In this document: piece after piece, positions 3,194 through 46,543 of the stretch
How positions within the stretch are numbered: position 1 is the first letter of the stretch
Layout: the number at the start of each line of letters is the position of its first letter
NCBI GenBank assembly: GCA_963761335.1
Contig: CAVXGR010000018.1
Location: 544,001-608,000 of the forward strand
Direction of reading: 5' to 3'
Origin: an uncultured delta proteobacterium
GTDB lineage: Bacteria; Desulfobacterota; Binatia; HRBIN30; BPIQ01
DNA length: 64,000 bases
Made by a program: the position numbers and the translations under genes
The notes under the pieces: model-generated
What the model was told of the DNA's origin: nothing
What the model saw: only the letters and a program-made list of their open reading frames with translations
The model's database searches: none

Positions 3194-3733
3194 GTGTGGC
3201 AGCTTCGTTCAGTGCTCCGGTTCAACGTCGATAGGGCGTCTGGCGTCACAGGGCACGGGCGTGGCAGCTGCGGTTTTTCACTGGGCGACGCTCTGCGCGT
3301 TGGCCTTCTGTGCGTACTCCTGATCGCCCCGGCGCTGGCGGCTGACAACGATCCGGTCGCCAATCCGGTAATTGCACCAGGACAGGAAGGGCTGCTGCTG
3401 GCGATGCTCGGGCAGGGAGCTTTGCTGCCGGGTGGATGCCGGCTCGCCGCCGGAGGAGTGGATCACTCGGTCGTCGACGCTTCTTATTTCTGCCCCTGGG
3501 GCGAGGTCGTTTTCGAGCTCGCGCATCCGGATGGCGCGGCGCCCGCGGTCATGCAGACAGAGTCCTTTGCGATCAGCCTGCAGAGCGGATCCGCGCCGGA
3601 GGCTCTGGTGGAAGCCGTGGCTGCCCTCGTTCACTCTCGAGAGTCGGAGTTCGTGTGGACATGGCCGGCGGGAGATGAGGCGGGCGATCTCGGGGATGAG
3701 GACGCGCCCCCGCCAGGCGATCCTCGGTGGTGA
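3194..3733 (+). CDS. Exported hypothetical protein (paralog of 3727..4389); start uncertain
   Basis: Signal-like segment VGLLCVLLIAPALAA; shares PVI.PGQE.LLLAMLG..A.LPGGC.L...CP.GEVV.EL.HP...FAI.LQSGS.P with the next ORF. Confidence 0.7.
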   Translation: MWQLRSVLRFNVDRASGVTGHGRGSCGFSLGDALRVGLLCVLLIAPALAADNDPVANPVIAPGQEGLLLAMLGQGALLPGGCRLAAGGVDHSVVDASYFCPWGEVVFELAHPDGAAPAVMQTESFAISLQSGSAPEALVEAVAALVHSRESEFVWTWPAGDEAGDLGDEDAPPPGDPRW

Positions 3734-4389
3734 GCTCCCCAGTCGGGGCCCCCAGCGCATCGGGCGGCTCCGCGTTGCGTCGCGGCGCGACCGCCGGCGC
3801 AGGCAGTATCCTCGCCGCGATCGGTAGCACTTGGCTGCGCGCCATGGCATTCGCTACCGCCTGCGCCTTTGTTCTGACGCCGGCGCGGGCAGCGGAGACG
3901 CCGACTCCGAGCCCGGAGATCTCGGTCTCCCCGGCGTCGGAGCAGGCGACCAAAGGCGCCAGAGCGCCCACCATGATACCCGACCAGCCGGTGATCCCCC
4001 CGGGGCAGGAGGATCTGCTGCTGGCCATGCTCGGCAGGGACGCGACTCTGCCCGGCGGCTGCAAGCTCACCGGCGGCCAGGTGGCGTACGCGGTGGTGCG
4101 CGCCACCTACGGGTGCCCGGGCGGCGAGGTGGTCCTGGAACTCGTGCACCCGAGCAAGGCTCCCCCCGAGGCGACTCGGACGGCGCGCTTCGCCATCACC
4201 CTGCAGAGCGGGTCGCCCCCGGCCGGTTTGACGGATGCGGTGGCGGACCTGGTGCGCTCGCGAGAGGCAGCCTTCCGTTGGAACGAGCCGCCATCATCCC
4301 GGTGGAGCACCTCGTCGATCGCCATGATGGTTGTCGCCGTTCTCGGACTTGCTGCCGTCGGCTGGGCGCTGCGGCGCCGCCGCTCGTGA
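3727..4389 (+). CDS. Exported, C-terminally anchored hypothetical protein (paralog of 3194..3733)
   Basis: Signal-like AxA segment, the shared domain, C-terminal TM helix followed by RRRRS; GTGA overlap with the next gene. Confidence 0.7.
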   Translation: MVSSPVGAPSASGGSALRRGATAGAGSILAAIGSTWLRAMAFATACAFVLTPARAAETPTPSPEISVSPASEQATKGARAPTMIPDQPVIPPGQEDLLLAMLGRDATLPGGCKLTGGQVAYAVVRATYGCPGGEVVLELVHPSKAPPEATRTARFAITLQSGSPPAGLTDAVADLVRSREAAFRWNEPPSSRWSTSSIAMMVVAVLGLAAVGWALRRRRS

Positions 4390-6092
4390 GGCCACGTTCG
4401 AACACGCTTCTCGTCTGGACCGGGGCGCCGTGCAGCTATGGCTGCGGCGCCTGTCCGATCGACACCGCCGCTTCCACCGCCGGCTTCGAGCCGGCCGATC
4501 TGCAGCGCGCCCTCGCCAGTACCGCAGTGGGTGCGCAGCGGCTGGCGGTTCTGGTCGGCGGGGAGCCGTTCCTGCGGCGGGACGTCTTCGGCCTCCTCGC
4601 CGGCGTGCGCGCCGCCGGCTGGACACCGGGAATGATCACCACGGGCCGGGCGCTGTTGTACCCACAGGTACGCCAGCGGCTGCGGCGCGCCGGCCTCGCC
4701 TACCTGCGCCTGCAGCTCTTCGGCATTGCTGCGGCCCACGATCGCGCCGTCGGTGTCGCCGGCGCCTACGAGCAGGCGCTCGCGGCGGTGCGGGCGTGGC
4801 TGGAGGAGGCCGGTGCCGAGTGCGACGTGGACGTGGCGCTGTCGATGCGCGGCCGCGCCATCGAGGCGGCAGCCGCCGAGGTCGACATCCTGTCGCGACA
4901 GATCTCCTCATCGGAGGTACAGATCGTGGTCGCCGTCGATGGCGGCGCCGCGCCGCAGGATCTCGATTCCATGCGCCGTGCGCTCGCCGTCCTGGCGGGC
5001 TGGAACGAGGACCCGAGGCGACCGCTGCTCTCCTGGGAAGGACTTCCGGAAAGCGTCTCTTCCGCCTGTGGCCTGGCGGTCTCGCCTCTGCGGCCGGGGT
5101 TCTTGGCCCGGGCGCCGCAGGCCTGTTGCATCGGTGCGGTGCCGGCGATTGCGGAAGCTGCCGCCGCCCGCCCGCCGGAGCCGCGGGCGAACTCCTTCAA
5201 CTTCATCCGCACCGCGACCTCGGTTCCGTGGACTGCCGACCCCGCTGCGTGCACCGCCCACGCCGCCGCCGCCGGCGACACCGGCCGGCAGCTCTGGCTC
5301 GTCGAGGATGGGCTTCTTCATCTGTACGTCACCGACACCGGCGACTTCGAAATTGCCGAGATCGGTCGCGTCAAGGACGAGTGGAGCCATCTCTTCGTCG
5401 ACTGTGCTGAGCCCGGAGTTCTCGACGACTTTGTCGGAGGGATGCGCCGAGTGCGTCCCGAGGCGACCTGCGAGGCGTGTGCGAACCGCGAGCGCTGCGG
5501 GCGCCGCTTCGCCGTCGTCGAGGGCCCGCCGTTTGCGCGCGAGGAGGCGTGGATCGCGGCGCACGTCGCCGGCGTGCGGGGGCGAGTGCTGGACGTCGGC
5601 TGCGGCGAGCAGCTCTACCGCGAGCAGCTGGCGCCGCTGCTGCGCTCCGGAGCCGTCGACTACCACGGTCTCGACCCCGACGAGCCCAGCCTCGCCGCGG
5701 CGCGCGCGGCGCTTCCCGAAGGCCACTACTATCTGGGTGGCATCGAGGAGTTCCGCGGCGGCTCGGAGCGTTTCGATCACATTCTCTGCCTGCGCTCGCT
5801 CAATCACGTCCTCGATCTCGACGAGGCGCTGGCGCGCATGGCCGAGATGCTCGGGCCCGGTGGCACGCTGCTTCTGGTGGAGACCACGCCGTTCGCCATG
5901 CTGCGCCGCGCCGAGCAGGTGACCGCCGCGGACCGCGCCCCGCGCGCCGGGCATCAGCACTTTCGCAACCTCACCAGCGCCGAGGTCCTGCCGCTGGCGA
6001 GGCGCCGGCGTCTGGAGATCCTCCACCACCATCCGGTCGGTCGGGAAGCCACGAATGAATGGATTCTGCTGCTCGCCAAGCCCCGGCGTTGA
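4386..6092 (+). CDS. Radical SAM protein fused to a C-terminal class I SAM methyltransferase
   Basis: CSYGCGAC (Cx3Cx2C), VGGEPF, ITTG, HDRAVGVAGAY; CEACANRERC; RVLDVGCGE and FDHILCLRSLNHV. Start GTG overlaps the upstream stop. Confidence 0.8.
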   Translation: MRPRSNTLLVWTGAPCSYGCGACPIDTAASTAGFEPADLQRALASTAVGAQRLAVLVGGEPFLRRDVFGLLAGVRAAGWTPGMITTGRALLYPQVRQRLRRAGLAYLRLQLFGIAAAHDRAVGVAGAYEQALAAVRAWLEEAGAECDVDVALSMRGRAIEAAAAEVDILSRQISSSEVQIVVAVDGGAAPQDLDSMRRALAVLAGWNEDPRRPLLSWEGLPESVSSACGLAVSPLRPGFLARAPQACCIGAVPAIAEAAAARPPEPRANSFNFIRTATSVPWTADPAACTAHAAAAGDTGRQLWLVEDGLLHLYVTDTGDFEIAEIGRVKDEWSHLFVDCAEPGVLDDFVGGMRRVRPEATCEACANRERCGRRFAVVEGPPFAREEAWIAAHVAGVRGRVLDVGCGEQLYREQLAPLLRSGAVDYHGLDPDEPSLAAARAALPEGHYYLGGIEEFRGGSERFDHILCLRSLNHVLDLDEALARMAEMLGPGGTLLLVETTPFAMLRRAEQVTAADRAPRAGHQHFRNLTSAEVLPLARRRRLEILHHHPVGREATNEWILLLAKPRR

Positions 6093-6093
6093 A

Positions 6094-6212: not shown

Positions 6213-6267
6213 CTCGAAGGGGTCCCGGCTTGACGGCGAGATTCCCGGGCTCCATGGTGATCCGAGC

Positions 6268-6564: not shown

Positions 6565-8280
6565 TCAGTCCGCCTTGTCGCGGAAGAGCTCGGCAGTATT
6601 CTTCTGGGCCGGGGCGCTGAACGACGCCTCCCAGCACACCGGGGGGACGGCGTCGTTGACGAGCTGGACGCGGACGCGGCTGTCCTGGTTGAACATCTCG
6701 AAGCCGGCCGGCGGCGGCAGGACCAGGCGGGGCCCCTTCGCCTTCACGAGGATGTGCGCTCTGCCCCCGGTTCCCTCCTTGAGGAGGATCTTGAACAGCC
6801 CGTCGGGAGTCACCAGGCTGTCGGAATAGCGGAACCCGCCGTGCACCTCCTTCCAGCAGGGCTTGTTGTTGCAGCTGCCCCCGGCGGGAGCCCGAGCGCT
6901 GAGCACCAGGGCCGGAACGCTACCGGTCTCGTCGTAGACGCACAGCGAGTAGTTGGTGTCGGCGACCGGATTGCCGAAGTCGAGCGCCGTCGTGTCGGCT
7001 CCCTTGATCCATTTCCAGGTGAGCCGATCCCGGAACTGGTCCGGCTTGTTCTTGACGATCAGTCGCGCCTTCTGGGAGACGATCGGGGTACGGCAGCCGC
7101 TGATCGGCGCCGCCTGACACAGCGAGATCGGCGTCGGCGTCGGCGACGGCGAGGGGGTCGGCAGCGGCGGTCCGCATGTTCCGGCACCGGTGCAAGCGCC
7201 GGTGCCGCCCGCGCAGGAGGTGCCCACCGACTTGTTCGGGTGCGTGCAGTCGGTGGAGACGCCGTCGCAGACGTCATCGGTGCACTCGTTGCCGTCGTCC
7301 GCGCAGCCGAAGCCCGCGCTCGAGATGATGTCGGCCGGGCACTGGCCGCCGGCGCCGTCACAGGTCTCGACCGGGTCACAGGCTCCCGCCGAGGCGCGAC
7401 ACTCGGTGTTCGCCGGCAGGAGCTGGCAGGTCGGGGAGCAGCAGCTGCCGGCGGTGCCGTTGGCGCTGCCCTGGTCGCACTGCTCGCCCGCGTCGATGGT
7501 GCCGTTGCCGCAGAGGCACTCGAGCGTCGCGGTGACGATGTGGCCGTCGTCGGTCGCCGTACGCGAGCCCACGCCGGGATAGTCGTCGGCGCTGATCCCG
7601 TCCGTCGGACAACCGGACCAGTCGTTGACGTCAAGGCCGAGGCGCACGGCGCATTCCATGCCGCAGGTGAAGGCGGTGGCATTGCTGGCGCAGCTGCCGG
7701 TCCAGTTGAAGGTCAGCGAGTGCGACTGCGGCGAGCCGCTGCTCGTTCCGGTGATCACCGCGCTCTCGCTGCGGTCGATGGTCACGTATTGGTTTCCTCC
7801 GGCGCCGCTGAGGCCGCCCGGATCGGTGATGCTCAGGTTGCCGGAGAGAGCGCCGCCGCTCTGCGCGCCGGTGATCGGGCTGAGATCGGACGACGCCGTA
7901 CCGGCCACGCCGCAGCCCGAGGAGTCGTCCACATGCGTGAAGGCGCCCCTGAGGTTGGTATCGACGGTGATCCGGTAGCCTCCCGGAGGGCAGATGACGT
8001 CGAAGCTGAGCGTGTAGCTGCTGATCAGAGAGGTGCTGATGGGGGTGGTCAGGCGGGCGTCGGCAGCAATCAGCTCGGCGAAGCGCGTGGTGAACGAGTC
8101 GGCGGTCTGCGACACGACGCCGAGGGTCGTACGGGTTTGCGTGCAGCTCGGACAGCAGCCGCTGCTGGTTCCGCCGCCGCTGTTGTTGGTGAGCGTCAGC
8201 CCGGAGATGCTGCCGTTCGCCTGCGTGCTCGCAGGCGCGGCGACGGCGATGATGAGCAGAAGCGTGTACAGGCGATTCAT
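6565..8280 (-). CDS. Secreted protein with Cys-rich (DUF4215/disintegrin-like) repeats, PT linker and conserved C-terminal domain
   Basis: Signal peptide; CGNGTIDAGEQCDQG; CRASAGACDPVETCDG; C-terminal domain shared with 43271..45325. Confidence 0.8.
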   Translation of the reverse strand: MNRLYTLLLIIAVAAPASTQANGSISGLTLTNNSGGGTSSGCCPSCTQTRTTLGVVSQTADSFTTRFAELIAADARLTTPISTSLISSYTLSFDVICPPGGYRITVDTNLRGAFTHVDDSSGCGVAGTASSDLSPITGAQSGGALSGNLSITDPGGLSGAGGNQYVTIDRSESAVITGTSSGSPQSHSLTFNWTGSCASNATAFTCGMECAVRLGLDVNDWSGCPTDGISADDYPGVGSRTATDDGHIVTATLECLCGNGTIDAGEQCDQGSANGTAGSCCSPTCQLLPANTECRASAGACDPVETCDGAGGQCPADIISSAGFGCADDGNECTDDVCDGVSTDCTHPNKSVGTSCAGGTGACTGAGTCGPPLPTPSPSPTPTPISLCQAAPISGCRTPIVSQKARLIVKNKPDQFRDRLTWKWIKGADTTALDFGNPVADTNYSLCVYDETGSVPALVLSARAPAGGSCNNKPCWKEVHGGFRYSDSLVTPDGLFKILLKEGTGGRAHILVKAKGPRLVLPPPAGFEMFNQDSRVRVQLVNDAVPPVCWEASFSAPAQKNTAELFRDKAD

Positions 8281-19549: not shown

Positions 19550-20566
19550 TTACTTCCATGAGAACAGGACGGAGCCCGCCTTGAGGTAGAGCTTGCGCGC
19601 CCCGAGCGGCGAGAAGAGCACGTCGGCGATGAAGCGCGGCGCCTTGCCCGGCGCTTCGCAGCGAAGGCACAGGGGGGCTTCGTTCTGCCGCCGCAGCGCG
19701 TTCATGCGGTCGACCCAGATCGTCTCCAGATCGTCGGTGAGGAGATTGCCGAAGCTGTTGCGGCGCAGCATGTCCTTGCAGCAGACCAGCACCTCGCCGT
19801 CCGGGGCCACGGCGATCTCCTCGAACGGGCGAAAGCAGCGGATTGGTCCGCGCCGCGATGTCTCTCCATCATAGGAGAACTTCTCTTCCCTCTTGATGCG
19901 CAGCAGCCGGTTGCCGGGGTTGACGAAGCGCCGGGCGAGGGCGCCCCGATCGAACTTGGCCGTGTCTGCCGGGGCGATGACCTGCAGCACCACCCAGGTG
20001 CGCGGCGCGCAGGCGCGGATGAAGCGGTTCACCTGCTCTACGCGGCGCTCGGGGAGCTCAGCCACATCGCCCAAGTGGTAGCTCTCCAGCCAGGCGTTCA
20101 GGTTCAGCACCACGACCTCGATGCCGCTGTCCGCCAGGGCGGCGATGCGGCGGTCGTCGAGCAGCATGCCGTTGCTGTAGAGGATGGTGCCGAGGCCGCG
20201 ATGGCGCGCGTGGCGGATCAGGTCGGGCAGCTCGGGGTTCAACAACGGCTCGCCGTAGAAGGAGAAGTCGACCAGCTCCAGATGGGGAGAGAGCTTGTCG
20301 AGGATGGTCTCGAACTGCGCCAGCGACGTGGCGCGCGGCTCCAGCCGCTTGAAATCGAAACAGAAGTTGCAGGTGGCATTGCAGCGACTCGCCGCCGCGA
20401 GCACCAGAATCGAGGGGCGGGTGTGGCGCACCTCGTTGTGCGCGTACTCGGAGAGCGTCGGCAACAGGCGGCCAAAGCGCCGGCGCATAGCGCGAAGGCT
20501 GGCGCCGATGCCGGCGCGTCCGGCGCCTTTGGGCTCTCGGCTCGGAAGGCGAGCGGGGGCGTTCAT
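19550..20566 (-). CDS. Radical SAM/SPASM protein
   Basis: RCNATCNFC, YGEPLLNP, SNG; CFRPFEEIAVAPDGEVLVCCKD...FGNL...CLRC; ATGA overlap with the upstream gene. Confidence 0.9.
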   Translation of the reverse strand: MNAPARLPSREPKGAGRAGIGASLRAMRRRFGRLLPTLSEYAHNEVRHTRPSILVLAAASRCNATCNFCFDFKRLEPRATSLAQFETILDKLSPHLELVDFSFYGEPLLNPELPDLIRHARHRGLGTILYSNGMLLDDRRIAALADSGIEVVVLNLNAWLESYHLGDVAELPERRVEQVNRFIRACAPRTWVVLQVIAPADTAKFDRGALARRFVNPGNRLLRIKREEKFSYDGETSRRGPIRCFRPFEEIAVAPDGEVLVCCKDMLRRNSFGNLLTDDLETIWVDRMNALRRQNEAPLCLRCEAPGKAPRFIADVLFSPLGARKLYLKAGSVLFSWK

Positions 20567-22404
20567 GACGCTGCTTCCGCCGCCGACACCAGGCCCAGCG
20601 CCTCCTCCGTGCGCGCACACAGGTCGCGCATGAACTGCTCCTCGTTCGGCGCCAGGGGCTGGTTCTCGCGCCGCGCGTAGGAGATCGCGTAGGGGCCGGC
20701 GCGAAAGAAGCTGCGCTGTCCGCTCTCGCGCTCGACGATCACGCGCAGGACCGGAGCGGGGGCGGGCAACACGCGAAAATGCGCCTCGCCGCCACCGCCG
20801 ACGCGGGCGATGGTCGCCTCGGCAAACGTCTGTCCGGGAGAGCCGAGGCCGATCAGGGCGGCCCAGGCGAGCAGCACCTCGTCCGAGGCGGCGCTGCCTG
20901 GCGGCTGTGCCGCGCTCTCCGCCTCGGAGTCGCGCAGGTGGTCGCCATCGATGGCCACGAGCTCCTTCTGGACGTCCTCGCGAGCCCGCAGCTCGTAGAT
21001 TTCCGCAGCGCGCTTCCGGCGCGCTTTCGCGTCCGGCGCGCTCGGCGGCAGCAGCGCCTCGAACACCTGCGGATGACTTGCCGGCGAAGCGCCGGTGGCG
21101 CGGCGGGCCCAGCGCCCGCGGCATCGCAGCGCCCCCGAGCGAACGCCCTCGTCGAAGAAGCGAGCGAAGGTCGCCTGCACGTCGACGCCGCTGCGGCGTT
21201 GCAGGGCACGCGTGTCGATCCGGCGCGACTCCGCCAGGCCCTGGAGCAGGGCACTGCGACACTCGTCTTCGGGTGTCAGTCGCGTGCCCAGGTACACGGG
21301 CTCCATGGGCGCGGAGAGCGTCGTGACTGCGGTGGCCTCGCGGAACCAGCTATGGCCGTAGATGTGCGACAGGGCCCCGGGGCCGATGCCGAGGATGTGC
21401 GAGTCCCCGTTCTCGTACAGCGCGTAGACCGGCAGCTCGGCTTCCGCCCGCAGCAGGCGCACCGCCTCGTAGCGAAGGCGATCGCCCCATTGCTGCCAGG
21501 TGCGCCGGCTGTTGCGCAGAAAGCTCTTGCTCGGCCGATCGTCGCCGCCGCTGGCGGCGGGCAGGTAGCCCATGCGCAGGGCGCCCCCGATGAGCGCCGG
21601 CGTGAGCACGTGGCTGTAGCGCATCTCTTCCTGCGGGCCGGCGGGGAGGCGTTCGACCGGCTGGTAGCGGTACACGGTGACGCAGTCGGGACGAACCCCG
21701 GAGAGCAGTCGCTGCAGATCGCTGCGGAAGGACGCCGGCGTCTGTGCCGGCAAGCCGAGGACCAGGTCCGTGTTGGTCCACATGCCGAGATCGCGGGCGC
21801 GGCGCACCAGCTCCTGCACCCGTTCGAAAATCGGGTTGGTCCGTCCGATCCCCTTGAGCACCGCCGGGTCGAACGACTGCAGCCCCATGCTGAGCCGGTT
21901 GACGCCGGCGCCGTGCAGGATCTCGAGCTTCTCCTCGTCGAGGGTCCCGGGATGGGCCTCGCAGGTGAACTCGCTGGCGACGCGAAAGGATTGCCGGAAG
22001 GCTTCGGCGACCCGCCGCAGCTCCGCGGCCGGGAGGGCGCTCGGAGTGCCGCCGCCGAAGTAGGCATTGGAGACGTCGACGCGCCCGAGGGCGCTGCCAT
22101 ACCGTTGGAGAAGAGCCACCAGATAGTCGGCGTAGCGCCTGACGTGATCTCCGTCGCGGGGGACGACGTGAAAGTACTGGCAGAAGCGACAGCTCGACTG
22201 GCAGAGGGCGAAGTGCATGTAGAGCTGCACCGTCGACGGCGAGCCCGGCCGGCCGCGTTGCGCCAGCGCGCTTCTCCATGCGTCGAGGACGTCGGTGGCG
22301 GGCAGGCGCTCGGGCCACCACCCGATCCAGGCCGACAGGTCGCCGCGCAGCATCTGCTCGCGCAGTGAGCGGCCGAACCCGTACTCTCGCGGGGGTTTCG
22401 CCAT
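20563..22404 (-). CDS. HemN-like (class C-like) radical SAM protein with C-terminal extension; start uncertain
   Basis: LYMHFALCQSSCRFC, YFGGGTPS, NRLSMGLQSF, DLVLGLP.QT, LGIGPGALS. Confidence 0.85.
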   Translation of the reverse strand: MAKPPREYGFGRSLREQMLRGDLSAWIGWWPERLPATDVLDAWRSALAQRGRPGSPSTVQLYMHFALCQSSCRFCQYFHVVPRDGDHVRRYADYLVALLQRYGSALGRVDVSNAYFGGGTPSALPAAELRRVAEAFRQSFRVASEFTCEAHPGTLDEEKLEILHGAGVNRLSMGLQSFDPAVLKGIGRTNPIFERVQELVRRARDLGMWTNTDLVLGLPAQTPASFRSDLQRLLSGVRPDCVTVYRYQPVERLPAGPQEEMRYSHVLTPALIGGALRMGYLPAASGGDDRPSKSFLRNSRRTWQQWGDRLRYEAVRLLRAEAELPVYALYENGDSHILGIGPGALSHIYGHSWFREATAVTTLSAPMEPVYLGTRLTPEDECRSALLQGLAESRRIDTRALQRRSGVDVQATFARFFDEGVRSGALRCRGRWARRATGASPASHPQVFEALLPPSAPDAKARRKRAAEIYELRAREDVQKELVAIDGDHLRDSEAESAAQPPGSAASDEVLLAWAALIGLGSPGQTFAEATIARVGGGGEAHFRVLPAPAPVLRVIVERESGQRSFFRAGPYAISYARRENQPLAPNEEQFMRDLCARTEEALGLVSAAEAAS

Positions 22405-22424
22405 CGAAGACGGGAGCGGGGGGC

Positions 22425-23291
22425 TCAGCGCTCCCAGCGAGGAGACATATGCAGCAGGGCGCCGCCGTCCTGCGGTTCTTCCGGGACGGCGCACCGCTCT
22501 TCGGGCGTCCTTGCGGCTCGATCATCCGCCGCTTCCGGCCGGGGTGGCGATTCGGAAGGAATATCGAGTTGTCGCCAGGGCAATGCGGCGATCTCGCGGA
22601 TGGTGCGCAGCTGCACGCGCAGGGTCATCTTCGATCGTCCCGCTCGGCGCTCGCGGAAGTCGATCGGGATCTCCGCAATCCGGCAGCCGCAGGTGGAGGC
22701 CAGGAAGGCCATTTCGACCTGAAAGCCGTAGGCCCGCGAGCGCACCCGCCGCGCCGGATCGATACGCAGCAGGGCCGCGCGCCGCCACATGCGGAAGCCG
22801 CTGGTCGGATCGGTGATCGGCAGCCTCGGGAGCAGCCGCACGACCGCGGCGTTGCCGAGACGGCTGATTGCTCTCCGATACCGGCCGCTGCGAGAGTCGC
22901 GGCTGTCGCCGGGGGTGTATCGAGAACCCACCACGACGTCGGCTTGCGAGACCGCGGCCAGCATGCGCGGCAGGACGCCGGGCTCGTGGGAGCCGTCGGC
23001 GTCCATCTGGACGATCAGATCGGCCCGGCCGTGCAGGACGTGAGAGAAGCCGGCCACGTATGCCGATCCCAGACCCTGCTTCGCGGTTCGCCGCATGACC
23101 TCGACCCGTCCCGGCCAGCGCCGCCCGGCGGCGATGGCGACGTCGGCGGTGCGGTCGGGGGAGGCGTCGTCGACCACCAGAACGTGCAGATCGCAGGTGC
23201 CGAGGGGCTGCGCAAAGAGGGCGTCGAGCAGCGCCCCGAGATGACCCGCCTCATTGTACGTCGGGATGACGGCGACCAGCTTCACGCGCAC
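22425..23291 (-). CDS. Polyprenol-phosphate mannose synthase-like GT2
   Basis: IPTYNE, VVDDASPDRT, GLGSAY, QMDADGSH, DPTSGFR, GFQVEM, GRSKM. Confidence 0.9.
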   Translation of the reverse strand: MRVKLVAVIPTYNEAGHLGALLDALFAQPLGTCDLHVLVVDDASPDRTADVAIAAGRRWPGRVEVMRRTAKQGLGSAYVAGFSHVLHGRADLIVQMDADGSHEPGVLPRMLAAVSQADVVVGSRYTPGDSRDSRSGRYRRAISRLGNAAVVRLLPRLPITDPTSGFRMWRRAALLRIDPARRVRSRAYGFQVEMAFLASTCGCRIAEIPIDFRERRAGRSKMTLRVQLRTIREIAALPWRQLDIPSESPPRPEAADDRAARTPEERCAVPEEPQDGGALLHMSPRWER

Positions 23292-32415: not shown

Positions 32416-33745
32416 TCAAGGAGAACTGCGCCCTTGGCGAGTCTGGCCGTTCAGCGGGACTCCGCCGGCTTCGCCGATCGCCGCCAGTCTGCCAATCGGA
32501 GGCAGACGTCCTCCCTCACCCTCGGCTGCGCCTTGGACCATCTGGCGGAAGCGGGATCCGACAATCTGCAGATCGCGGAAGTCCAGATCACTGCGATAGA
32601 AGATGTGGGCCGCGCCGACGTCGAACGGGCTCCGCAGCGAGGAAGGTGCACATGTAAGCTCGAACTCCGCCTTCCCGGACTTTCCCGAGAGGGCAGCGAC
32701 GAGGCCGCTGTCGTTGACTTGGAGGGAGTCCAGGGACCAGCCGTCTGCGATGCTCTGTCCGACGATGAAGGGTCCGACCTGCCGCAGCGCGGGCACCACG
32801 GCCGGCGCGCCCGCTTCCCGCGCCGTCTCCAGTCGAGTCCAACGCTGCCTCTGATGAGAGATGGCGAGCAGGGCGCATACGGCCAGCACCGCTGCGGCGG
32901 CAGCGAACCGCCGATCGACCCCACCTACTCCCGCGGTGGAGTGCGCCGAGGGCGTCGGCGTGCCGTCCGCCGAGAGGCCGAAGACGAGCAGAAAGACCAT
33001 CGATTCCCAATAGAGAATGTGGGTCAGCAGGTAGATGTTCGCATGCATGGCGAGCAATCCCAGAGCGATGCAGAGCCGCGTCCGGCCGCCGGCGATCACG
33101 AGCGGCCCCGCCAGCTCGAAGCCGAGGGTGGCGACGGCGAACAGCTGAGCGACTGCCGGAGTCGTCGCTACCCAGGAGCGATAGGCGCTCAGCAAGCTGT
33201 CGGCGACCAGTCCGTCCTGTCCGATGACGACTGCCTGGATGGGGATGCCGGAGATCCACTCGGTGCCTCCGTACACGGCCTTGCTGATGCCGGCGTTCAG
33301 ATACGCCGCACCCAGCAGGGCGAGGCTGCCGGTGCGAGCGAACGACTCGTCAGTCGGCGTTCCCCGGGCGCGACCCACGGCCAAGCCGAGAAGCCATCCG
33401 GACAGACACAGGCCGCTGTAGAAAAGATGGCGCCAGGGCGATCCGAACAGCTGTGCATGGACGGAGCTGAGCAGCGCCAGGGCGGCCAGCGCGATCATTC
33501 CCTCCCACAGGCGCCCGGGCCTGCGGCCAAAGGCGATGGTGGCCGCCAGGCCGATGGCGATCACGATGCCGCGCACGGTCGCTGCGCGAGAGGATGTCGA
33601 TCAGCGGGCCGAGAGCCGGGCCGCGGGCCAGCGCCGCGGCGCGGGCCTCGCCGAGGAAGAAGAAGAAGGAGAGCAGGTCGACGGCGACGATGGCGGCCAG
33701 GGCGATGCGCAGGCAAGGCCGTGTCGGCGGGGGCTGTGCGGTCAT
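32416..33745 (-). CDS. HTTM-like membrane protein with C-terminal soluble domain; apparent frameshift near 33585
   Basis: YLNAGISK, FELAGPL, LLAMHANIYLL. The N-terminus MTAQPPPTRPCLRIALAAIVAVD lies in a different frame and overlaps the upstream stop (ATGA). Confidence 0.6.
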
Positions 33746-34188
33746 CGTCCCACCCGGCAGTGGGCGATGACACAGTCCGCGACAGGCGCCGGCGGCGAAC
33801 CGGGGCGCAGCTCCCAAGTCCGCGTGATGAGCTCCGCCTGGAGCGCGCCGGGACCGGCATGGGTCTCGATGTAGCGAGTCAGATCCTCGAACTGATACTC
33901 GATGCCGCGCCGGTGAGCGCACCGAGCCGCGCTGCCCCGCAGGGGCTCGCTGCAGTCGAAGGAGCTGAAATCGGTGACCCGGTGCACCGCACCCCCAGCG
34001 TCGCGAATCAGAAGGTGACTCGCCTGTCTGCCCGGCAGCCGGGCATACATGGAGAAGGTGTCGAGCGGATAGAGCAGCGACGCCATCTGGTCCCCGAGCC
34101 GCATGTCGAAGCGCACCGCCCACGACAGGGCGACGTAGCCGAGGACGCAGAGCACTCCGAAACGAAGCTGCGAGGCGCGCGCGCTCAC
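33742..34188 (-). CDS. Small membrane-anchored protein, likely partner of the HTTM-like gene
   Basis: GTG start overlapping the upstream stop; TM helix then YPLDTFSMYA. Confidence 0.6.
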   Translation of the reverse strand: MSARASQLRFGVLCVLGYVALSWAVRFDMRLGDQMASLLYPLDTFSMYARLPGRQASHLLIRDAGGAVHRVTDFSSFDCSEPLRGSAARCAHRRGIEYQFEDLTRYIETHAGPGALQAELITRTWELRPGSPPAPVADCVIAHCRVGR

Positions 34189-35333
34189 GGGTGCAGCAGA
34201 GGCTCCAGATCGTCCAGCGGATCGACCTTGACGCCACGGGCGGCGAAGGCTGCCGCAAGATGGCGGATGGTCGTCTCGGCGAACTCCTCGGTGGCGAAGG
34301 ACTGAAGCCGGTGTTGCTCGTAGAGATGCCGGACGCGCTCGCCGAGGTACATCCGGTCCAGCCGCACGGCACAGACGTACGGGGCAATCTCCGCGACCAG
34401 GCGGTCGACGTTCATCGGCAGCACCGGCTGGATGACGGCAAAGGTCCTGATCCCCGCCGCGTGCAGCGCCCGCAGGGCCGCGAATCGCTCGCCGATCGGG
34501 TCGGCGCCGGGCTCGAAAATCTTCCGGTACTCGTCGGCATCGGTGGGAATGCTGAAGCCGACGAGGGCCCGCGGGAACCGCTTCAGCAGATCGAGATCGT
34601 CGAGGACGCGCGGCGCGCGCGTCAGGACGACCGGCGCCAGCTCGCTGTCGAGGAGCACCTCCAGACACTGGCGCGTGATCCGGTAGCGCCGCTCCGCCGC
34701 CTGATAGGGATCGGTGAGGATCGGGCTCAGCCTCACGGTACCGCGCTTCGTTGTCTGGATTTCGCGTCGCAGAACTTCCGCGGCGTTGATCTTCACGTCG
34801 AGATAGCGACCCCACGCAAGCCGTGGCAGGCCCTCCAGGCGGCGCGAGAAGTCCGCCCGGTCGATGACGTAGCAGAAGGAGCAGCCGATCATGCAGCCGA
34901 CGTAGGGGTTGATGTAGTAGCGGCCCCTGCCTTCCGGCATCAGCAGGCGTTCGACGAGAACCTCGCGCACGGCGGTGCCGCGCTCGGCGCCGGGCCGCTC
35001 TCCCGCCGGGAGCAGCGCCTCGCGATCGCGGACCACCGCGACGACGTCGTCGACCAGGCGGCGATCCGCCTCGTTCATGGGCGTGTCCTCGAGCAGGCGG
35101 CGCGCGCAGACGTTGAAGCGGGCCGTGCGCGTGTAGCAGTCCAGGCGATCATTGCGCTCTTCGAGCTCCACGAGAACGGAGGCCCCATCACGTTCGAAGG
35201 TGAGGCAGATCGCCTGCTCGGCGTCCCAGCTGATCAGATTCCAGCCGGAAGACGCAGGACGGTCGTTGAGGAACGGCGCCAGGAGCTGGCCGGCAACCTC
35301 CTCGATCCCGCGTCTTACCGGTGTGAGTCCCAC
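34185..35333 (-). CDS. SPL/Rv2578c-like radical SAM protein with extra N-terminal domain; start uncertain
   Basis: INPYVGCMIGCSFCY, VKINAAEVL, TDPYQ..E..Y..TR.CL, FEPGA. Confidence 0.85.
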   Translation of the reverse strand: MGLTPVRRGIEEVAGQLLAPFLNDRPASSGWNLISWDAEQAICLTFERDGASVLVELEERNDRLDCYTRTARFNVCARRLLEDTPMNEADRRLVDDVVAVVRDREALLPAGERPGAERGTAVREVLVERLLMPEGRGRYYINPYVGCMIGCSFCYVIDRADFSRRLEGLPRLAWGRYLDVKINAAEVLRREIQTTKRGTVRLSPILTDPYQAAERRYRITRQCLEVLLDSELAPVVLTRAPRVLDDLDLLKRFPRALVGFSIPTDADEYRKIFEPGADPIGERFAALRALHAAGIRTFAVIQPVLPMNVDRLVAEIAPYVCAVRLDRMYLGERVRHLYEQHRLQSFATEEFAETTIRHLAAAFAARGVKVDPLDDLEPLLHP

Positions 35334-39349: not shown

Positions 39350-40354
39350 TCACAGCCCGTACCACTTTCGCCGCAGGGGCGTCAACTTGGGGTTTGTCGT
39401 CCGGGTGCTGGTCGTCTGCGCCCGACGCGCCGGGTAGGCTCCCGGGTGACCCTCCCGAAAGCGGCGGCCCAGTGGGTCGTCGCGTCGCGGCTGAGCGATT
39501 CCGGTCGCCCGGCTGGTCGGGGTCATCCGTTCGCCGGCGCCATTGATCCACGATCTCTCGGAGCTCTGCAGCTCGCGCAGCAGCTGCGGCCGCTGGCGCA
39601 GAAGGGCGATTGCCTCGGGCTGCGGAAGAGCGCGGTGGAGCAGGGCTCGGTACCTCTGCAGACGGGCGCGCCACTGTGCCGGCGAGAGGGTGGTCCTGGT
39701 CGGAGGCGGGCAGGGCACCTGCTGGCCGAGCAGCATGATCATCAAACCCTCGTAGTTGAAAGCCGGGTCGCCCGTCGCACAGCGACGATTGCCGCTTTCG
39801 ACCCACGGGCCACAGGTGGAGTAGTGATCGAGCAGGGGCTGCAGGCCGGATACATCCACCGAAGCGCGACAGTCTCGCCAGAAGCGCGTCTCGCTCTTGC
39901 GGTTGAACTTGTAATGCACGCTGAGAAACCACCGCAGGTAGTCCCAGTGGGCGCCGAGCGCCTCGTTGGCGAAGGAGCGGTCGGACGGCCGATTTCCCGA
40001 CTGCAGCCCGCCGATGAGATAGGCGATCTCGACAATGACCATGTGGAGGGCGGTGGACTCGAGCGGCTCGACGAACCCGTAGGCATTGCCCAGGGCAACC
40101 GTGTTGCCCTTCCAGAAATCCCGGTGGCGGCCGCTGCGGAACTGCGGGGGGACCCGATAGGAGAATGAGTACCTGCCCGGCAGACCCCAATCGAACTTGA
40201 TGCCCAGTTTCCAGGTGGGCCGCACCTCGCGGTACAGGTCGACGATATCGATGCCGAGCTGCCGGTGTAGAAATGGCGGCATCAGGGTGGTGGTTGCTTC
40301 GCCGACGCCGACAACCTTTCGAGCCTCAAGATCTCGACGGTCCTCCGGCATCAT
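39350..40354 (-). pseudogene. Internally deleted tryptophan-halogenase-family (flavin-dependent) gene
   Basis: VGVGEAT, TWKLGIKFDW, FRSGRH, VALGNAYGFVEPLESTAL present; no GxGxxG, no WxWxIP; central region absent. Confidence 0.8.
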
Positions 40355-41816: not shown

Positions 41817-42058
41817 TAACTCTCCTCCGCCAGAGCCGCCTGACGCATTCGCGAAATGGTCTCGTGCAAGACGTGATTGCAGAAGGCGTTGGCTACCATC
41901 TCGGCATCATCTTCGGCAACGCCGGAGATGATGGTCTCGATGGCGTCGGCGGCGGCAGTCACTTCGATCTGGGCGTGCTCGGCGTAGGCCGCCGCGGCGG
42001 CGTCGACGGCCTCAGGCAGGTATAGCGATCGGTCGAAGGCGATGCGCTTGGTCATCAC
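41816..42058 (-). CDS. HxsD-like small protein
   Basis: FDRSLYLPEAVDAAAAAY...NAFCNHVL; paralog of 55524..55778. Confidence 0.75.
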   Translation of the reverse strand: MMTKRIAFDRSLYLPEAVDAAAAAYAEHAQIEVTAAADAIETIISGVAEDDAEMVANAFCNHVLHETISRMRQAALAEES

Positions 42059-42540
42059 TCCGTTTCCGGATCCTTCTTCGGCCCGGGCTCCTCGGTGGCG
42101 CCGCCGTGCTTCTCCTCCCATGGGACCATGATCTCCAGCGGGTCCTCGAGCAGCTCTTCGGCCTCCAGCTCGGCCAGCAGGTCGTCGACGGAGGGTGCCG
42201 AGGCGGCGGCGCGAAGCGCAGCCGCCGTGTAGTAGTCGCGAATATGCGTGGTCGCCTGGGAGAGGCGCAGGCGGGTGGCCTGCGACAGAAGCTCGTTGGC
42301 GAACTCACCGGCGAGGGCGTCCAGCTCCGCGGGTGTTGCAGGGGTCCGCGAGGTCAGCCTCGCGGTCACCACTTGCGGCTTCGGCCTCGACAGATAGACG
42401 AAGCACTTCTCGACGAACAGGTAGCAGGCGCCGTAGATGGCGTCGAGAGGATAGATGCTCTCGTCGACCTCGAAGGAGATCTGGTCAGGTCCCAGAGAGA
42501 AGCCGAGGCGAGACTGCTGCTCGGCGTCGGTCGCGGACAC
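42055..42540 (-). CDS. hxsD: His-Xaa-Ser system protein HxsD
   Basis: VDESIYPLDAIYGACYLF...LAGEFANELL...T..IRD; C-terminal LEDPLEIMVPWEEK; paralog of 55072..55527. Confidence 0.8.
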   Translation of the reverse strand: MSATDAEQQSRLGFSLGPDQISFEVDESIYPLDAIYGACYLFVEKCFVYLSRPKPQVVTARLTSRTPATPAELDALAGEFANELLSQATRLRLSQATTHIRDYYTAAALRAAASAPSVDDLLAELEAEELLEDPLEIMVPWEEKHGGATEEPGPKKDPETE

Positions 42541-42544
42541 TGCG

Positions 42545-43201
42545 CTACCTCAACCTCCGATCCACGGGACCCGAGAACAGGCGCAGGCGCTCCGACTGCG
42601 GCATCAGCGCCGCCATAAGAGGCCTGTTCTTCCACTTGGTTTCGTTGCGGGCGAGCACGTGGGCCAAGCGCGCAACCGCTTGGGCCAATCCTTCTTCCGT
42701 GGGCAGGTCTCCTCGTCCGCCATTCATGACCACGAGATCGAGACCCTTCGTGTGGACCAAGCCCTGCGGACGCCCATCGTTGCGGCAGAGATGGACGCGG
42801 TGTTCTCGACCCCGCGGATTCACCAGGGTCAGCACGCAGGTGCCGTCAACGACTCCGGTCAGGCCTGCGACGCGCCACCCATATGCCACCAATGATCCCT
42901 TGGCGAGTGGCCGAAGCAGCTCCCAGGGAGGCGGCGCGCCGAGGGTGCTCGCCGGCCCGGCGTCGACGACAGCGGGCTGCGGATCTACGGCCTTTCGAGG
43001 GTCGCCGACTGGCTCTGGAGCTGGAACGATCGCCTCCGTGGCGGCGGTCGCCGCTTGGATGGATCCCTCTTGATCCAGGGCAGAGCCGGTGACTGGCTCG
43101 GCGCGGCGTGCTGAGGCAAAGCTGGTCCGTGCCAGCCCCGCGGCCCACATCATGGCCGTACCGGCTGCGAGCCTTCCGACCAAATCACGTCGCGACAGCA
43201 T
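42545..43201 (-). CDS. Tat-signal hypothetical protein (paralog of 45956..46543)
   Basis: MLSRRDLVGRLAAG; GWRVAGL...CRNDGRPQGLVHT..DLVVMNGGRGDLPTEEGLAQAV. Confidence 0.75.
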   Translation of the reverse strand: MLSRRDLVGRLAAGTAMMWAAGLARTSFASARRAEPVTGSALDQEGSIQAATAATEAIVPAPEPVGDPRKAVDPQPAVVDAGPASTLGAPPPWELLRPLAKGSLVAYGWRVAGLTGVVDGTCVLTLVNPRGREHRVHLCRNDGRPQGLVHTKGLDLVVMNGGRGDLPTEEGLAQAVARLAHVLARNETKWKNRPLMAALMPQSERLRLFSGPVDRRLR

Positions 43202-43270: not shown

Positions 43271-45325
43271 TCAGTCGTTCTTGTCGAGGAACCTGTCGCC
43301 CTCGTTCTTCGTCGCCGGGGCCGTGTAGTCGGCAGTCCAGCACTCACCGTTGCTGTTGACGAGCTGAACCGTCATCATCGGATCCTGGTTGAGCGGGATC
43401 AGCGGCTCGAGGCTGGCGAAGTCGAGGTTCAGACCCTTCGCCAGGACGACGAGCTTGGCGCTGGCGCTCCCCGCCTTCAGGCGGATGGTCTTGATGCCGC
43501 GCTGGGTCGAGTCCCTGTCCTTGTAGCGGAAGCCACTGACTCCGGTCGCCTTCCAGCACGGATGAGAGCCGCAGGTGCTGCTGCCCGGAATACCGGCGGT
43601 CAGCAAGCGGATCGGCGTGCCCGACGAGTAGTCGTATACGCAGAAGGAGTAGAAGGTCGAGGTGTTGACCGGGTCGCCGAAGTCGGGCGGCGAGGTGACG
43701 TCCCCGTACGATCGCACCGCCGACCAGGTCCACTTCAGCAGGTCCCTCTTGTCCGGGGACTTGTCGCGGATCAGCAGCAGCGACTTCTTCGGCTGTATCG
43801 TGATGTGGCACAGGTTCGCCGGCAGCGGCGTCAGGGCGCAGGGGTTGGGTGTCGGGGTCGCCGTGGGCGTCGGACTCGGAGTGGCGGTCGGGGTATCCGT
43901 CGGGGTCACGGTCGGCGTATTGGTCGGCGTGCTGGTCGGCGTATCCGTCGGCGTCACGGTCGGCGTATCCGTCGGCGTGCTGGTCGGCGTGTTGGTCGGC
44001 GTGCTGGTCGGCGTATCCGTCGGCGTGCTGGTCGGCGTTTCCGTCGGCGTGCTGGTCGGCGTATTCGTCGGCGTATTCGTCGGGGTGTTGGTCGGGGTGT
44101 TGGTCGGCGTGCTCGTCGGCGTGCTCGTCGGCGTATCCGTCGGCGTGCTCGTCGGCGTGTTGGTCGGCGTGCTCGTCGGCGTGCTCGTCGGCGTGCTCGT
44201 CGGCGTGCTCGTGGACGTCGGCGTATTGGTCGGGGTGCTCGTCGGTGTCCGCGTCGGCGTTTCCGTCGGCGTATCGGTCGGCGTGCTCGTCGGCGTCACC
44301 GTCGGCGTATTGGTGCTGGTCGGTGTCCTCGTCGGGGTGCTCGTGGACGTCGGCGTGTTGGTCGGCGTGCTCGTCGGCGTGCTCGTCGGCGTACTCGTCG
44401 GCGTGTTGGTTGGCGTGCGGGTCGGTGTCTGCGTCGGCGTGTTGGTCACCGTCGGCGTGCGTGTCGGGGTGCTGGTCGGCGTCTGCGTCGGCGTGCAGGC
44501 CGGGTTGAAATCGGCCGGGCACGAGGCGCTCGAGCCCGTGCAGGTCTCGGCGACGTCACAGGCGCCGGCGTCGGGCCGGCAGACCTGACCGCTGCCGCGG
44601 AAGGTGCAGCTGCTGGTGCAGCAAGAGGTCGAGCTGCCGTTCGAGCCGCCGAGGTCGCACTGCTCGGCGCTGTTGTTCGTGTCGGTCACGCCGTCGCCGC
44701 AGTCCGAGTAGTAGAAGGCGACGTCGACGCTGCTGTAGTCGGAGGCGCCTGACGACGGTGTGTGTGTGTTGTTGTAGTTGGTCAGGGCGTAGTCGAGAGA
44801 GAAGGTCGGGGCGCTGGCTTTGACATCGACCCGGAACGTGAAGGAGGTGCCGCTGGTGAGCTGGAAGAGGTAGCGGATGTCGCCATAGGTGCCGCTGTCG
44901 GCGGGGCTGCCGCCGGCGGCGATCGTCGATGCGGAGCCGGAGACTCGGGTGATGACCAGCTGGTTGCTCACCGTTTGCGACCCGTTGATCTGGTCGGCGA
45001 CGCTGGTCGAGCTGGTGTAGGTGATCGACGTGGAGTTGCTGGTCGAGTACTTGAAGATGGCGCTCCCCGAGGGGGCGGAGCCCGTCATGGTGTTGCCGTT
45101 CACATTCGAGGCCGCCCGGATGCCGAAGTACACGTTGGAGTGCGAGCCGAGGCTCACTCCGGAGCAGGTGACCGTGGCGCCGCCGCTGGAGCTGGGCACG
45201 CCGCTGACGCTGCAGGAGCCGCCCCCTGGGAGGCTGTACGTCGGGCCGCCGGTGATCACCAGCGCCGAGGCGCTGCTGGCGACGCCGAATAGAATGAGCG
45301 CCGCAAGGATTGCACCACGCTGCAT
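43271..45325 (-). CDS. Secreted Ser/Thr-rich protein with Cys-rich repeat, long TPT[S/N/D] linker and conserved C-terminal domain
   Basis: GGAGG RBS before ATG 45325; signal peptide; CGDG...EQCDLG; about 200 aa of PT repeats; C-terminal domain like that of 6565..8280. Confidence 0.8.
43848..44495 (-). repeat. Coding 12-bp tandem repeat (Thr-Pro-Thr-Xaa linker)
   Basis: Imperfect gtcggcgtgctc/gtcggcgtatcc units. Confidence 0.9.
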
Positions 45326-45468
45326 CGTCCACCTCCGCCGTGGGTTGTGAAGCGAGCTCGAAGAGATGCGCACCGCAACGGAATCCGCGGCTGATCTTCC
45401 CCCGTTTGGCCGAAATAACGTCATCAAGGCGCCTCCGCTAGCGCTGCGGTGCTGTTTGCACCAGGGTG

Positions 45469-45858
45469 TCACCACGATCCGTGCGAGCCGTGACTGCCAT
45501 GAGACCCGTGACTCCCGTGGGACCCGTGGCTGCCGTGCGAGCCGTGGCTTCCATGTGAACCGTGGCTTCCATGCGAGCCGTGGCTGCCGTGCGAGCCGTG
45601 GCTGCCGTGTGAGCCATGGCTGCCGTGCGAGCCGTGGCTGCCGTGCGAGCCGTGGCTGCCGTGCGAGCCGTGCGAGGCGTGCGACATGTGCTGCGCCAGC
45701 ATCATGCTTTCATTGCTGGGGTCGGTCCGCAGGGCCTGAGCCGCTGCCGCAGGATCGACGGCACCGACCGGTTTCACCGCCTGGCGGGCCTCGTCGCGGC
45801 TGAGAAAATCCAATGGCGTCTTCCGCAATGAGGGAAGCGCGTTCTTCTTCTGGCTCAT
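45469..45858 (-). CDS. hxsA: His-Xaa-Ser repeat precursor peptide (HxsA-like): 56-aa leader + HMS-HAS-(HGS)22-W
   Basis: 24 in-frame H-x-S triplets (45475-45690); AAGGAGGG RBS upstream; located among hxsB/C/D-like genes. Confidence 0.9.
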
Positions 45859-45955
45859 TGTCCCTCCTTCACCGTGGGCGCATCATCGACGCGATACGCC
45901 CCCCTATCTCGATTCGTAGCCACAACCGACCCCGGCCATTGCGCCGTGGAGACCC

Positions 45956-46543
45956 TCATCGCAACCTCGCCCCACTGGCAGCGGCAAATCGCTCGAGGCG
46001 CTCCGCGTGGGACAACAGCGCCGAGGCGAGCTGCCGCTGTCGGTTCGCCTCGTTGGCCGCGAGCACGCGCCCCACAGCGGCCACCGCCTGGGCCAATCCC
46101 TCTTCCGTGGGTAGATCTCCTCTGCCGCCGTTCATCACCACCAGATCGAATCGTCGGGTATGCACGAGACCTTGGGGCCGACCGTCGTTGCGGCAGATGT
46201 GCACGCGGTGCGAGCGCCCGCGCCGGTTCTCCAGCGCCAGCACGCAGGAGCCGTCTTCCTCTCCGCTCAAGCCAGCCACCCGCCAGCCATGGGCCACTGC
46301 GGACCCGATTCCCAGCGGCTGCAACAGATCCAAGGGTGGGCTGCTCGGCGGCGCGGGCTCGGCCGCGGACATGGCGGCCTCCGCTGCCGGAGCTGTGGCC
46401 GACTGCTCTTCACCGCTCTGCGCCAATGCGGAAACACCAATATCGTCGCGAGCGGATTTCGCCTCCGCCCGCCCGATGTTGGCAGACCACGCCACGGCAG
46501 CACCGGCCGCCAGCTTTCCGACGAACGCCCGTCGGGACAGCAT
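45956..46543 (-). CDS. Tat-signal hypothetical protein (paralog of 42545..43201)
   Basis: MLSRRAFVGKLAAGAAVAW...AEA; same conserved domain as its paralog. Confidence 0.75.
   Translation of the reverse strand: MLSRRAFVGKLAAGAAVAWSANIGRAEAKSARDDIGVSALAQSGEEQSATAPAAEAAMSAAEPAPPSSPPLDLLQPLGIGSAVAHGWRVAGLSGEEDGSCVLALENRRGRSHRVHICRNDGRPQGLVHTRRFDLVVMNGGRGDLPTEEGLAQAVAAVGRVLAANEANRQRQLASALLSHAERLERFAAASGARLR

Follow-up and report, generated by a model that had tools for sequence, protein, structure and literature searches.

An uncatalogued domain of about 100 residues recurs across an expanded HxsA4-type cluster of a Binatia bacterium and may handle the His-Xaa-Ser peptide

What do two small exported proteins, two proteins with a twin-arginine signal, two radical S-adenosylmethionine (SAM) enzymes and a membrane protein have in common, if they are all encoded in one gene cluster? 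This question is raised by a stretch of 64,000 nucleotides from an uncultured Binatia bacterium (contig CAVXGR010000018.1, positions 544,001 to 608,000, assembly GCA_963761335.1; hereafter the window), the right part of which is, according to NCBIfam matches, a His-Xaa-Ser (Hxs) system of HxsA4 type. The first-pass annotation of this DNA reported an unnamed domain in up to seven of its proteins and proposed a shared substrate-recognition module. Hxs systems stayed functionally opaque for more than 10 years, until in 2026 an antiphage role was described in Escherichia coli, in a report that leaves the handling and export of the effector open (PMC13128918). There it is stated that HxsB, HxsC and HxsD mature HxsA to a periplasmic effector blocking phage DNA entry, that HxsA carries its own signal peptide, while its export is termed non-canonical and unresolved, and that 99.7% of Hxs systems are found in Pseudomonadota (PMC13128918). 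Our answer, held at about even confidence, is that the segments represent one uncatalogued domain of about 100 residues, belonging to an expanded HxsA4-type system and most likely serving as a module for binding or handing over the HxsA4 peptide or its product.

All seven segments are present at the positions first reported (Table 1). That report had given no strands; the segment 35019-35298 and both proteins with a twin-arginine signal lie on the minus strand. Each sub-operon of the window contains one carrier of the domain. Protein A is composed of a signal-peptide-like N-terminus, the domain and an acidic tail devoid of an anchor, and protein B of a signal peptide, a linker, the domain, a C-terminal transmembrane helix and an Arg cluster. 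In protein C the domain is fused to an SPL-like (PA0069/Rv2578c-type) radical SAM enzyme. The gene of protein D is located directly upstream of the HxsA4 gene, and the domain of D is extended by two C-terminal helices; the gene of protein E is located directly upstream of the genes for HxsD, an HxsD-like protein and HxsB (40326-42540, minus strand). The remaining two carriers, a polytopic membrane protein and a HemN-like radical SAM enzyme, have the segment at their C-termini, that of the HemN-like enzyme being the weakest candidate copy. The name 'HTTM-like' that had been attached to the membrane protein has to be dropped, since no HTTM Pfam match was obtained at E <= 0.01 and the only row was a chance one ('Harakiri', E 0.004).

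Are these segments truly related? A and B are clear paralogs (phmmer E 1.6e-34), and so are D and E (E 5e-60); single-sequence links between the families are marginal (B-C 0.066, A-E 0.1, B-D 1.6). Domain-trimmed alignments were therefore compared as profiles by local hhalign, all of the profiles being shallow (effective sequence number, Neff, 2.2-4.6). The N-terminal domain of C matched the A/B family with a probability of 93.6% (E 2.1e-7, 89 columns), which became 93.3% with 42 C sequences and 76.6% (E 2.1e-5) on untrimmed alignments. It matched the D/E family at 46-71% (E 3.6e-5 to 2e-4) over 89-90 columns, that is, over the whole domain. The membrane-protein tail was aligned with C at 38-50% (94-96 columns) and with D/E at 61-79% (43-49 columns), and the HemN-like tail, taken together with its ortholog from locus L050, with C at 69-78% (E 1.8e-5 to 4.4e-5) over 58-60 columns, from strand 3 to the final helix. 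Reversed targets gave P 0.059-0.6 in 12 of 12 comparisons, with a maximum score of 15.2. In 128 decoy comparisons (4 profiles against 32 alignment windows taken from unrelated families encoded in the same loci) no score exceeded 19.6 (P 0.012) and the medians were 10-12, as compared with 27-44 for the real links; four of these (C-D/E, C-membrane tail, D/E-membrane tail and C-HemN pair) scored 27-35. The relationship anticipated in the first-pass annotation was recovered by profile comparison, in which C joins A/B, D/E and the membrane tail above decoys and reversed controls. Since C is connected strongly to A/B and moderately to the other three families, it constitutes the hub, and A/B is linked to D/E only through C, because the two families do not match directly.

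The same picture was obtained when the whole genome (63,035 six-frame fragments) was searched. The best non-self hits of the C profile were D (E 0.47) and B (E 0.91), the best non-family match of the D/E profile was the membrane protein (E 1.1), and the A/B profile ranked C sixth (E 4.5). Individually these E-values are weak; nevertheless, segments picked by chance should be bettered somewhere in the other 99% of the genome, so that top ranks lying in the window argue against chance. Furthermore, MAFFT placed the five families in one register from sequence alone. Taken together, the sequence comparisons support homology of the segments, with moderate profile scores behind the D/E, membrane-protein and HemN links.

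The D/E profile pointed to a third genomic place, C18:940163-940558, within a single open reading frame (ORF) of 732 residues. In this eighth copy a D/E-type domain stands behind an HxsD-like domain and ahead of an HxsC4-like radical SAM domain, with a 2Fe-2S ferredoxin of plant type as the last part. The fusion ORF is preceded by the gene of a TPR protein and followed by that of a double HxsC-like radical SAM protein, and the region has the appearance of a second Hxs-like locus; in the stretch of L001 inspected, a gene with HxS repeats was not found. A union profile, trained on a set that included all eight known copies, revealed no ninth one in the genome (next best E 0.54). The module is therefore used stand-alone, in exported form (Sec-type signal in A/B, twin-arginine signal in D/E) and fused to enzymes (C, the HemN-like enzyme and the eighth copy), as had been suggested. 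Signals and fusion partners place it, by prediction, on both sides of the membrane, namely in cytoplasmic iron-sulfur enzymes of three classes and in proteins with a Tat signal or with a Sec-type signal and a Cys pair.

At least five families of the domain have arisen in Binatia-like bacteria. The D/E family comprises 747 relatives at E <= 0.001, and no Pfam domain was present among the best 120 of these 747 matches. Its N-terminus is a putative Tat signal with an S-R-R-x-F-L-K type motif, a hydrophobic stretch and an A-x-A site; an alignment of 126 sequences shows S4, R5 and R6 conserved to at least 90%. Strand 3 of the stand-alone D/E proteins has a His and, two residues apart from it, a Cys that are equally well conserved (>=90%). 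Two subfamilies, D-type and E-type, are not claimed, since in a tree of 34 D/E domains the precursor-adjacent and HxsD-adjacent copies were not cleanly separated. When a phylum sample of 401 genomes was searched with the D/E profile, only the genome of the window was matched. The A/B family has 64 relatives; these carry a signal peptide and a domain, about 100 residues long, with two invariant Cys, and most of them also a C-terminal transmembrane helix followed by arginines. The N-terminal 121 residues of C retrieved 25 clusters among 1.84 billion representatives, most of them showing this N-domain in fusion with an SPL-like radical SAM enzyme, and no A/B or D/E member was found among these 25. 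For the membrane protein five relatives were obtained, and a single-protein locus scan found no related loci. The sole ortholog found for the HemN-like enzyme is that of L050 (tblastn 1e-82 over residues 51-626; BLASTP 2e-6 for the C-terminal part), and its C-terminal part was not found in five metagenome-assembled genomes (MAGs).

What would such a domain look like? AlphaFold (AF2) models were made for B, with an alignment of 71 sequences, and for D, with 126, and the predicted local distance difference test score (pLDDT) of the domain is 96-98 and above 90, respectively. The elements of B are H95-101, E112-120, E123-130, E133-140, E156-161 and H168-182 (H, helix; E, strand), after which the anchor helix comes; those of D are H72-75, E89-97, E100-106, E112-119, E133-138 and H149-169, with two more helices behind. 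Although modelled independently, both show the same order of helix, four strands and helix, as a single module would require, and in the predicted fold a short helix is followed by an antiparallel sheet of four strands and then by a long helix. In the MAFFT alignment the elements of B and D coincide in 46 of 64 structured columns, and a shift of one against the other by 6 or more residues leaves agreement in only 22-27 of 69-80. The sequence marks of the domain are Gly-Trp where strand 1 begins (Cys in A/B) and Thr-x-Arg-Phe at strand 4.

In a structural search of 48,161 solved chains the top-50 lists of B and D had 21 entries in common, including Mdm12, the Aha1 N-domain, KA1 domains, the MucB/RseB C-domain and SPLUNC1. 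Like the new domain in its models, MucB/RseB, Aha1, KA1 and TULIP proteins carry a helix on a four-stranded antiparallel sheet, and the matches cover the whole domain: the Z-score was 5.5 for B and 4.3 for D with Aha1, 5.1 and 4.7 with MucB 6jau_A (root-mean-square deviation 3.0-3.3 over 80-81 residues), and 4.5-5.1 over about 81 residues in both models with the MucB/RseB C-terminal domain (PF17188). However, all Z-scores are below 6, a level at which the tool warns of a merely common arrangement, and the new domain has no sequence match to these families in Pfam or PDB. In ESM Atlas the MucB/RseB C-terminal cluster appears at 0.82, and the best scores do not exceed 0.85, the lead level being 0.9. 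Foldseek gave no match of the D model in PDB at E <= 0.001, and kinase N-lobes, its top rows for D (E 0.4-1), were treated as topological noise. From the models and the neighbour lists it follows that B and D have a common architecture, which is not clearly that of any solved family.

Sequence libraries led to the same outcome. Eight domain segments gave no meaningful Pfam match at E <= 10, only two unrelated chance rows, and PDB sequences yielded 0 matches at E <= 1 to profiles A3 and A4. At E <= 0.001 proteins A, B, D and E match 0 NCBIfam families, and the sole matches of C are to SPL-type radical SAM models and lie outside the new domain. The Hxs models of NCBIfam likewise match C, the HemN-like enzyme and the membrane protein outside the domain, if at all. 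No PqqD/RRE family match was detected in 52 ORFs of 213-48766 at E <= 0.01. As no earlier description was found in a limited literature search, the domain appears to be uncatalogued. The same search found no mention of HxsA4, HxsC4, HxsA2, HxsA3 or HxsD-like, and in the main text of the E. coli report the words 'Twin-arginine', 'leader' and 'Binat' do not occur, 'Tat' being seen only in its reference list (PMC13128918).

How is the domain connected with Hxs? The related loci come from Candidatus Binatia MAGs. The 51 matches of the D/E family, in 45 loci, are in 25 cases directly followed, on the same strand, by an HxS-repeat ORF, which is the co-occurrence with HxS-repeat peptides that the first-pass annotation had envisaged. 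Another 11 are directly followed by HxsD, mostly with the HxsD-like gene and HxsB behind it, so that 36/51 matches stand directly upstream of an HxS ORF or HxsD, and the tie of the module to the Hxs core gains support. The rest have a flank shorter than 400 nt (9/51), another neighbour (5/51, two of which, in L042, overlap HxS ORF fragments) or are fused (1/51). In L042 there are three tandem D/E-HxsA4 pairs, in L022 two. HxS ORFs of the related loci share a leader of 56 residues and end in Trp, and 24 of 32 are followed by a disintegrin-type secreted protein (5 lack the flank, 3 are not). The order Tat protein, HxsA4, disintegrin-type protein can thus be regarded as a conserved three-gene cassette. 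The window holds both orders, D-HxsA4-secreted protein and then E-HxsD-HxsD-like-HxsB. In its secreted protein a disintegrin-type domain rich in Cys is joined to a C-terminal domain through a Pro/Thr linker of about 200 residues; a second secreted protein with a Cys-rich domain of this type is encoded at the left end (Table 1).

The A/B family is present in 11 loci, with HxS ORFs in 3 and Hxs-type genes in 4 (L051, L052, L053, L061). Locus L052 has A/B, an HxS ORF, D/E and C within 10 kb, L051 repeats the left-hand gene set of the window, and A/B occurs with HxsD and HxsB in L053, with C in L058 and with the membrane protein in L060. In the C family (24 loci), the domain is fused to the SPL-like enzyme in 23, and within 10 kb Hxs-like radical SAM genes were found in 11, A/B in 3, D/E in 2 and the membrane protein in 2; the family appears only loosely linked to Hxs. 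For the domain as a whole, the link to Hxs is supported.

Since the commonest partner of D/E is the precursor gene, the simplest account is that the HxsA4 peptide or its product is bound by the module and handed on. Peptide handling is proposed because the HxsA4 leader is strongly conserved and devoid of a signal, HxsA is periplasmic in E. coli, TatC is encoded in this genome, and no PqqD/RRE match was detected. Recurrence, profile links, predicted architecture and conserved gene order, as described above, lead up to this account; from them we infer a ligand, the HxsA4 peptide or product, and a recognising or escorting role. Fused to SPL-like, HxsC4-like and HemN-like radical SAM enzymes and to the membrane protein, the domain would bring the peptide to each tailoring step, and outside the cytoplasm the product would be held by D/E, with their putative Tat signals, or by A/B, which are predicted to be exported by Sec, to contain disulfides and to be in part anchored in the membrane. 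Several observations weigh against peptide handling by one common module. Neighbourhood counts overstate independence, because the MAGs are related and some loci lie on the same contig. The C family is often apart from Hxs, with 7/24 loci lacking any window-like neighbour and an HxS ORF in 1/24. The top structural neighbours include lipid-binding proteins, which fit another kind of ligand, and neighbours common to B and D do not prove common descent, since the fold is simple and common and Z stays below 6. Among the profile comparisons, C matched D/E at only 24.7% (E 7.9e-4) on untrimmed alignments, the direct A/B-D/E comparison (P 0.02) fell within the decoy range, and the HemN-like tail, listed as a weaker match in the first-pass annotation, is linked to C when L050 is added and not when the sequence of the window is compared by itself (P 0.18).

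These weak links would be expected if there were no single superfamily, i.e., if only A/B and the N-domain of C were related, and the D/E, membrane-protein and HemN tails reflected a common alpha/beta arrangement and chance motifs; the comparison of A/B with the membrane-protein tail (P 0.016) also lies within the decoy range, and the profiles are shallow. We consider this quite unlikely, as the four independent links exceed the maxima of decoys and reversed controls, the alignments span the whole domain in one register and agree with the predicted secondary structure, and the C and D/E profiles, run against the whole genome, find their best non-self hits among the remaining candidates of the window. 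A related domain could still bind something else. Binding of a small ligand (a lipid, a glycolipid intermediate, a metal or a cofactor), with Tat export of D/E reflecting a bound cofactor, would be in line with the TULIP-type neighbours of both models (Mdm12, BPI, SPLUNC1 and juvenile-hormone-binding protein, Z 4.5-5.8), with the conserved His and Cys of strand 3, and with the glycosyltransferases, PMT-like transferase, LPG-synthase-type membrane protein and DegT aminotransferase of the cluster. Yet every Z is below the informative level of the tool, the His and Cys are missing from three fused D/E-type copies and from the A/B and C families, and the tight pairing with the precursor gene would be left unexplained, which makes such a ligand rather improbable.

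A docking module, which would bind HxsD or HxsC-type enzymes and assemble a tailoring complex instead of binding the peptide, is suggested by the eighth copy, where the domain is placed between HxsD-like and HxsC4-like radical SAM domains, and by the E-type genes that immediately precede HxsD; for E. coli, the core processing complex is stated to be formed by HxsC and HxsD (PMC13128918). Exported copies, i.e., D/E with the twin-arginine signal in 126 sequences and A/B with a Sec signal and a Cys pair, would however be kept apart from cytoplasmic iron-sulfur enzymes, and the commonest position of the domain adjoins the precursor gene and not an enzyme, so that docking seems unlikely, if worth keeping in mind. 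The preferred reading, a module handling the HxsA4 peptide, has also a bolder version, in which a new peptide-recognition fold accompanies its substrate across the membrane; we regard this as doubtful. Here the cytoplasmic copies fused to radical SAM enzymes would present the signal-less HxsA4 peptide for modification, the finished product, bound by D/E while still in the cytoplasm, would pass with them as a hitchhiker through the Tat translocon, and A/B, Sec-exported, disulfide-bonded and membrane-anchored, would hold it at the cell surface. If so, an Hxs effector system would have its own export escort.

In Tat 'hitchhiker' export a signal-bearing partner carries a signal-less protein, e.g., the small and large subunits of hydrogenase. 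The nearly invariant S-R-R signal predicted in D/E and the adjacent HxsA4 with no signal of its own resemble this arrangement, and joint Tat export of the two may be considered on that ground. Similarly, RiPP recognition elements (RREs) are small domains that occur stand-alone or fused to tailoring enzymes, near a precursor with a conserved leader, and the role of an RRE is the role proposed here. An RRE, a PqqD-like winged helix, is built of three strands followed by three helices; the models of the new domain have a helix, four strands and a helix (B), with three final helices in D, and its segments gave no PqqD-type match in the Pfam search. No RRE entry was present among the 50 structural rows for B or D, which does not exclude an RRE. 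RREs are not known to be exported by Tat or Sec, unlike the copies of the new domain that are predicted to be exported. HxsD (TIGR03976) and HxsD-like (NF038315) proteins are also small accessory proteins of the same loci and are fused beside the domain in the eighth copy; HxsD itself was rejected as a relative, since its one window among the 32 decoys scored no more than 19.6 against any of the four profiles.

With the HXS system of E. coli and Klebsiella the window shares genes for HxsB, HxsC-type and HxsD proteins and a His-Xaa-Ser repeat protein, and the effector of that system is matured by radical SAM enzymes and periplasmic (PMC13128918). It differs in an HxsA4 with a signal-less leader of 56 residues and 24 repeats, in many further radical SAM enzymes, and in the new domain carried by seven proteins. 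Clusters of Binatia type are far larger than the E. coli system, with an unnamed conserved domain in exported proteins and several enzyme classes. Should binding of the peptide by the domain prove true, peptide maturation would have a second type of recognition module, of a fold unlike that of RREs, and this module would also be a candidate export escort and a handle for finding enzymes of such clusters.

Table 1. Positions of the domain carriers, Hxs genes and other features (window numbering unless stated otherwise)
Feature	Position	Strand	Details
Protein A	3194..3733	+	179-aa ORF; domain about 3362-3673; paralog of B
Protein B	3727..4389	+	220 aa; domain 3982-4296 with two invariant Cys
HemN-like radical SAM enzyme	20563..22494	-	643 aa; HemN/HutW-type matches; candidate domain 20566-20910
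Polytopic membrane protein	32416..33576	-	386 aa; C-terminal domain copy 32452-32793
Protein C	34185..35318	-	N-terminal domain 34956-35318; Radical_SAM aa 136-301
Protein E	42545..43201	-	Twin-arginine signal, linker, domain 42548-42949
Protein D	45956..46546	-	Twin-arginine signal, linker, domain 45959-46351
Eighth-copy fusion ORF	C18:939953-942151 of the same genome (L001 7954-10152)		
HxsA4-type precursor	45469..45858	-	NF038313, 143.7 bits (cut-off 55)
HxsD	42055-42540	-	TIGR03976, 50.5 bits
HxsD-like gene	41816-42121	-	NF038315, 58.1 bits
HxsB	40326-41816	-	TIGR03978, 351.7 bits
Four HxsC/HxsC4-like radical SAM genes	46913-54007	+	
Third HxsD-type gene	55072-55527	+	HxsD/HxsD-like
Second HxsB	55621-57321	+	
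Secreted disintegrin-type protein	43271..45325	-	PF00200, 39.6 bits (cut-off 35.1)
Second disintegrin-type secreted protein	6565-8280	-	PF00200, 29.8 bits, below cut-off
Radical SAM-methyltransferase fusion	4390-6092	+	
Glutathione S-transferase domains in overlapping ORFs	12422-13574	-	
Tryptophan-halogenase-like gene	39350-40615	-	
Gly-Val-Leu repeat ORF	43662-44588	+	308 aa; rejected as gene
2-Oxoacid:ferredoxin oxidoreductase pair	57530-60230	-	
Large protein with hydroxylase domain	60300-62681	+	TIGR04267, 79.7 bits
Partial SpvB-type row	62919-63998	+	Residues 76-129 only; 34 bits (cut-off 1133)

The G+C content of the window is 68%, and the majority of its long ORFs are shadows of real genes; genes were called from codon-position G+C and family matches, with gene starts inferred. 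The ORF of Gly-Val-Leu repeats ('GVLVGV') was rejected as the antisense of the Pro/Thr linker encoded on the minus strand; its third-position G+C is excellent, i.e., frame statistics mislead at this place. The N- and C-terminal domains of a glutathione S-transferase were matched in two different overlapping ORFs, which could be due to a frameshift, a sequencing error or a misjudged start. In total the window encodes two HxsB, four HxsC-like and three HxsD-type proteins, and at least eight further radical SAM enzymes, together with glycosyltransferases and membrane proteins, are found in the left 39 kb. The HxsA4 of the window ends, after its 24 repeats, with a Trp; no hydrophobic signal segment was seen in the sequence of its leader, and in an alignment of 26 leaders (A5) the mean column identity is 66%.

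Several neighbours of these genes deserve mention in their own right. Directly after A and B comes the gene of an enzyme in which a radical SAM domain is joined to a class I SAM methyltransferase, and this order recurs in L051, L053, L062 and L080. Directly downstream of HxsB there is a tryptophan-halogenase-like gene, which adjoins HxsB also in L009, L016, L044, L045, L046 and L065; the Trp that ends the HxsA4 peptides is invariant. At the right end of the window the partial SpvB-type row of NCBIfam probably reflects a repeat or an N-terminal region in common and not the enzyme itself. Just past the second HxsD-HxsB pair and the 2-oxoacid:ferredoxin oxidoreductase pair, a large protein is encoded whose C-terminal domain is of the aKG-HExxH-type peptide beta-hydroxylase kind.

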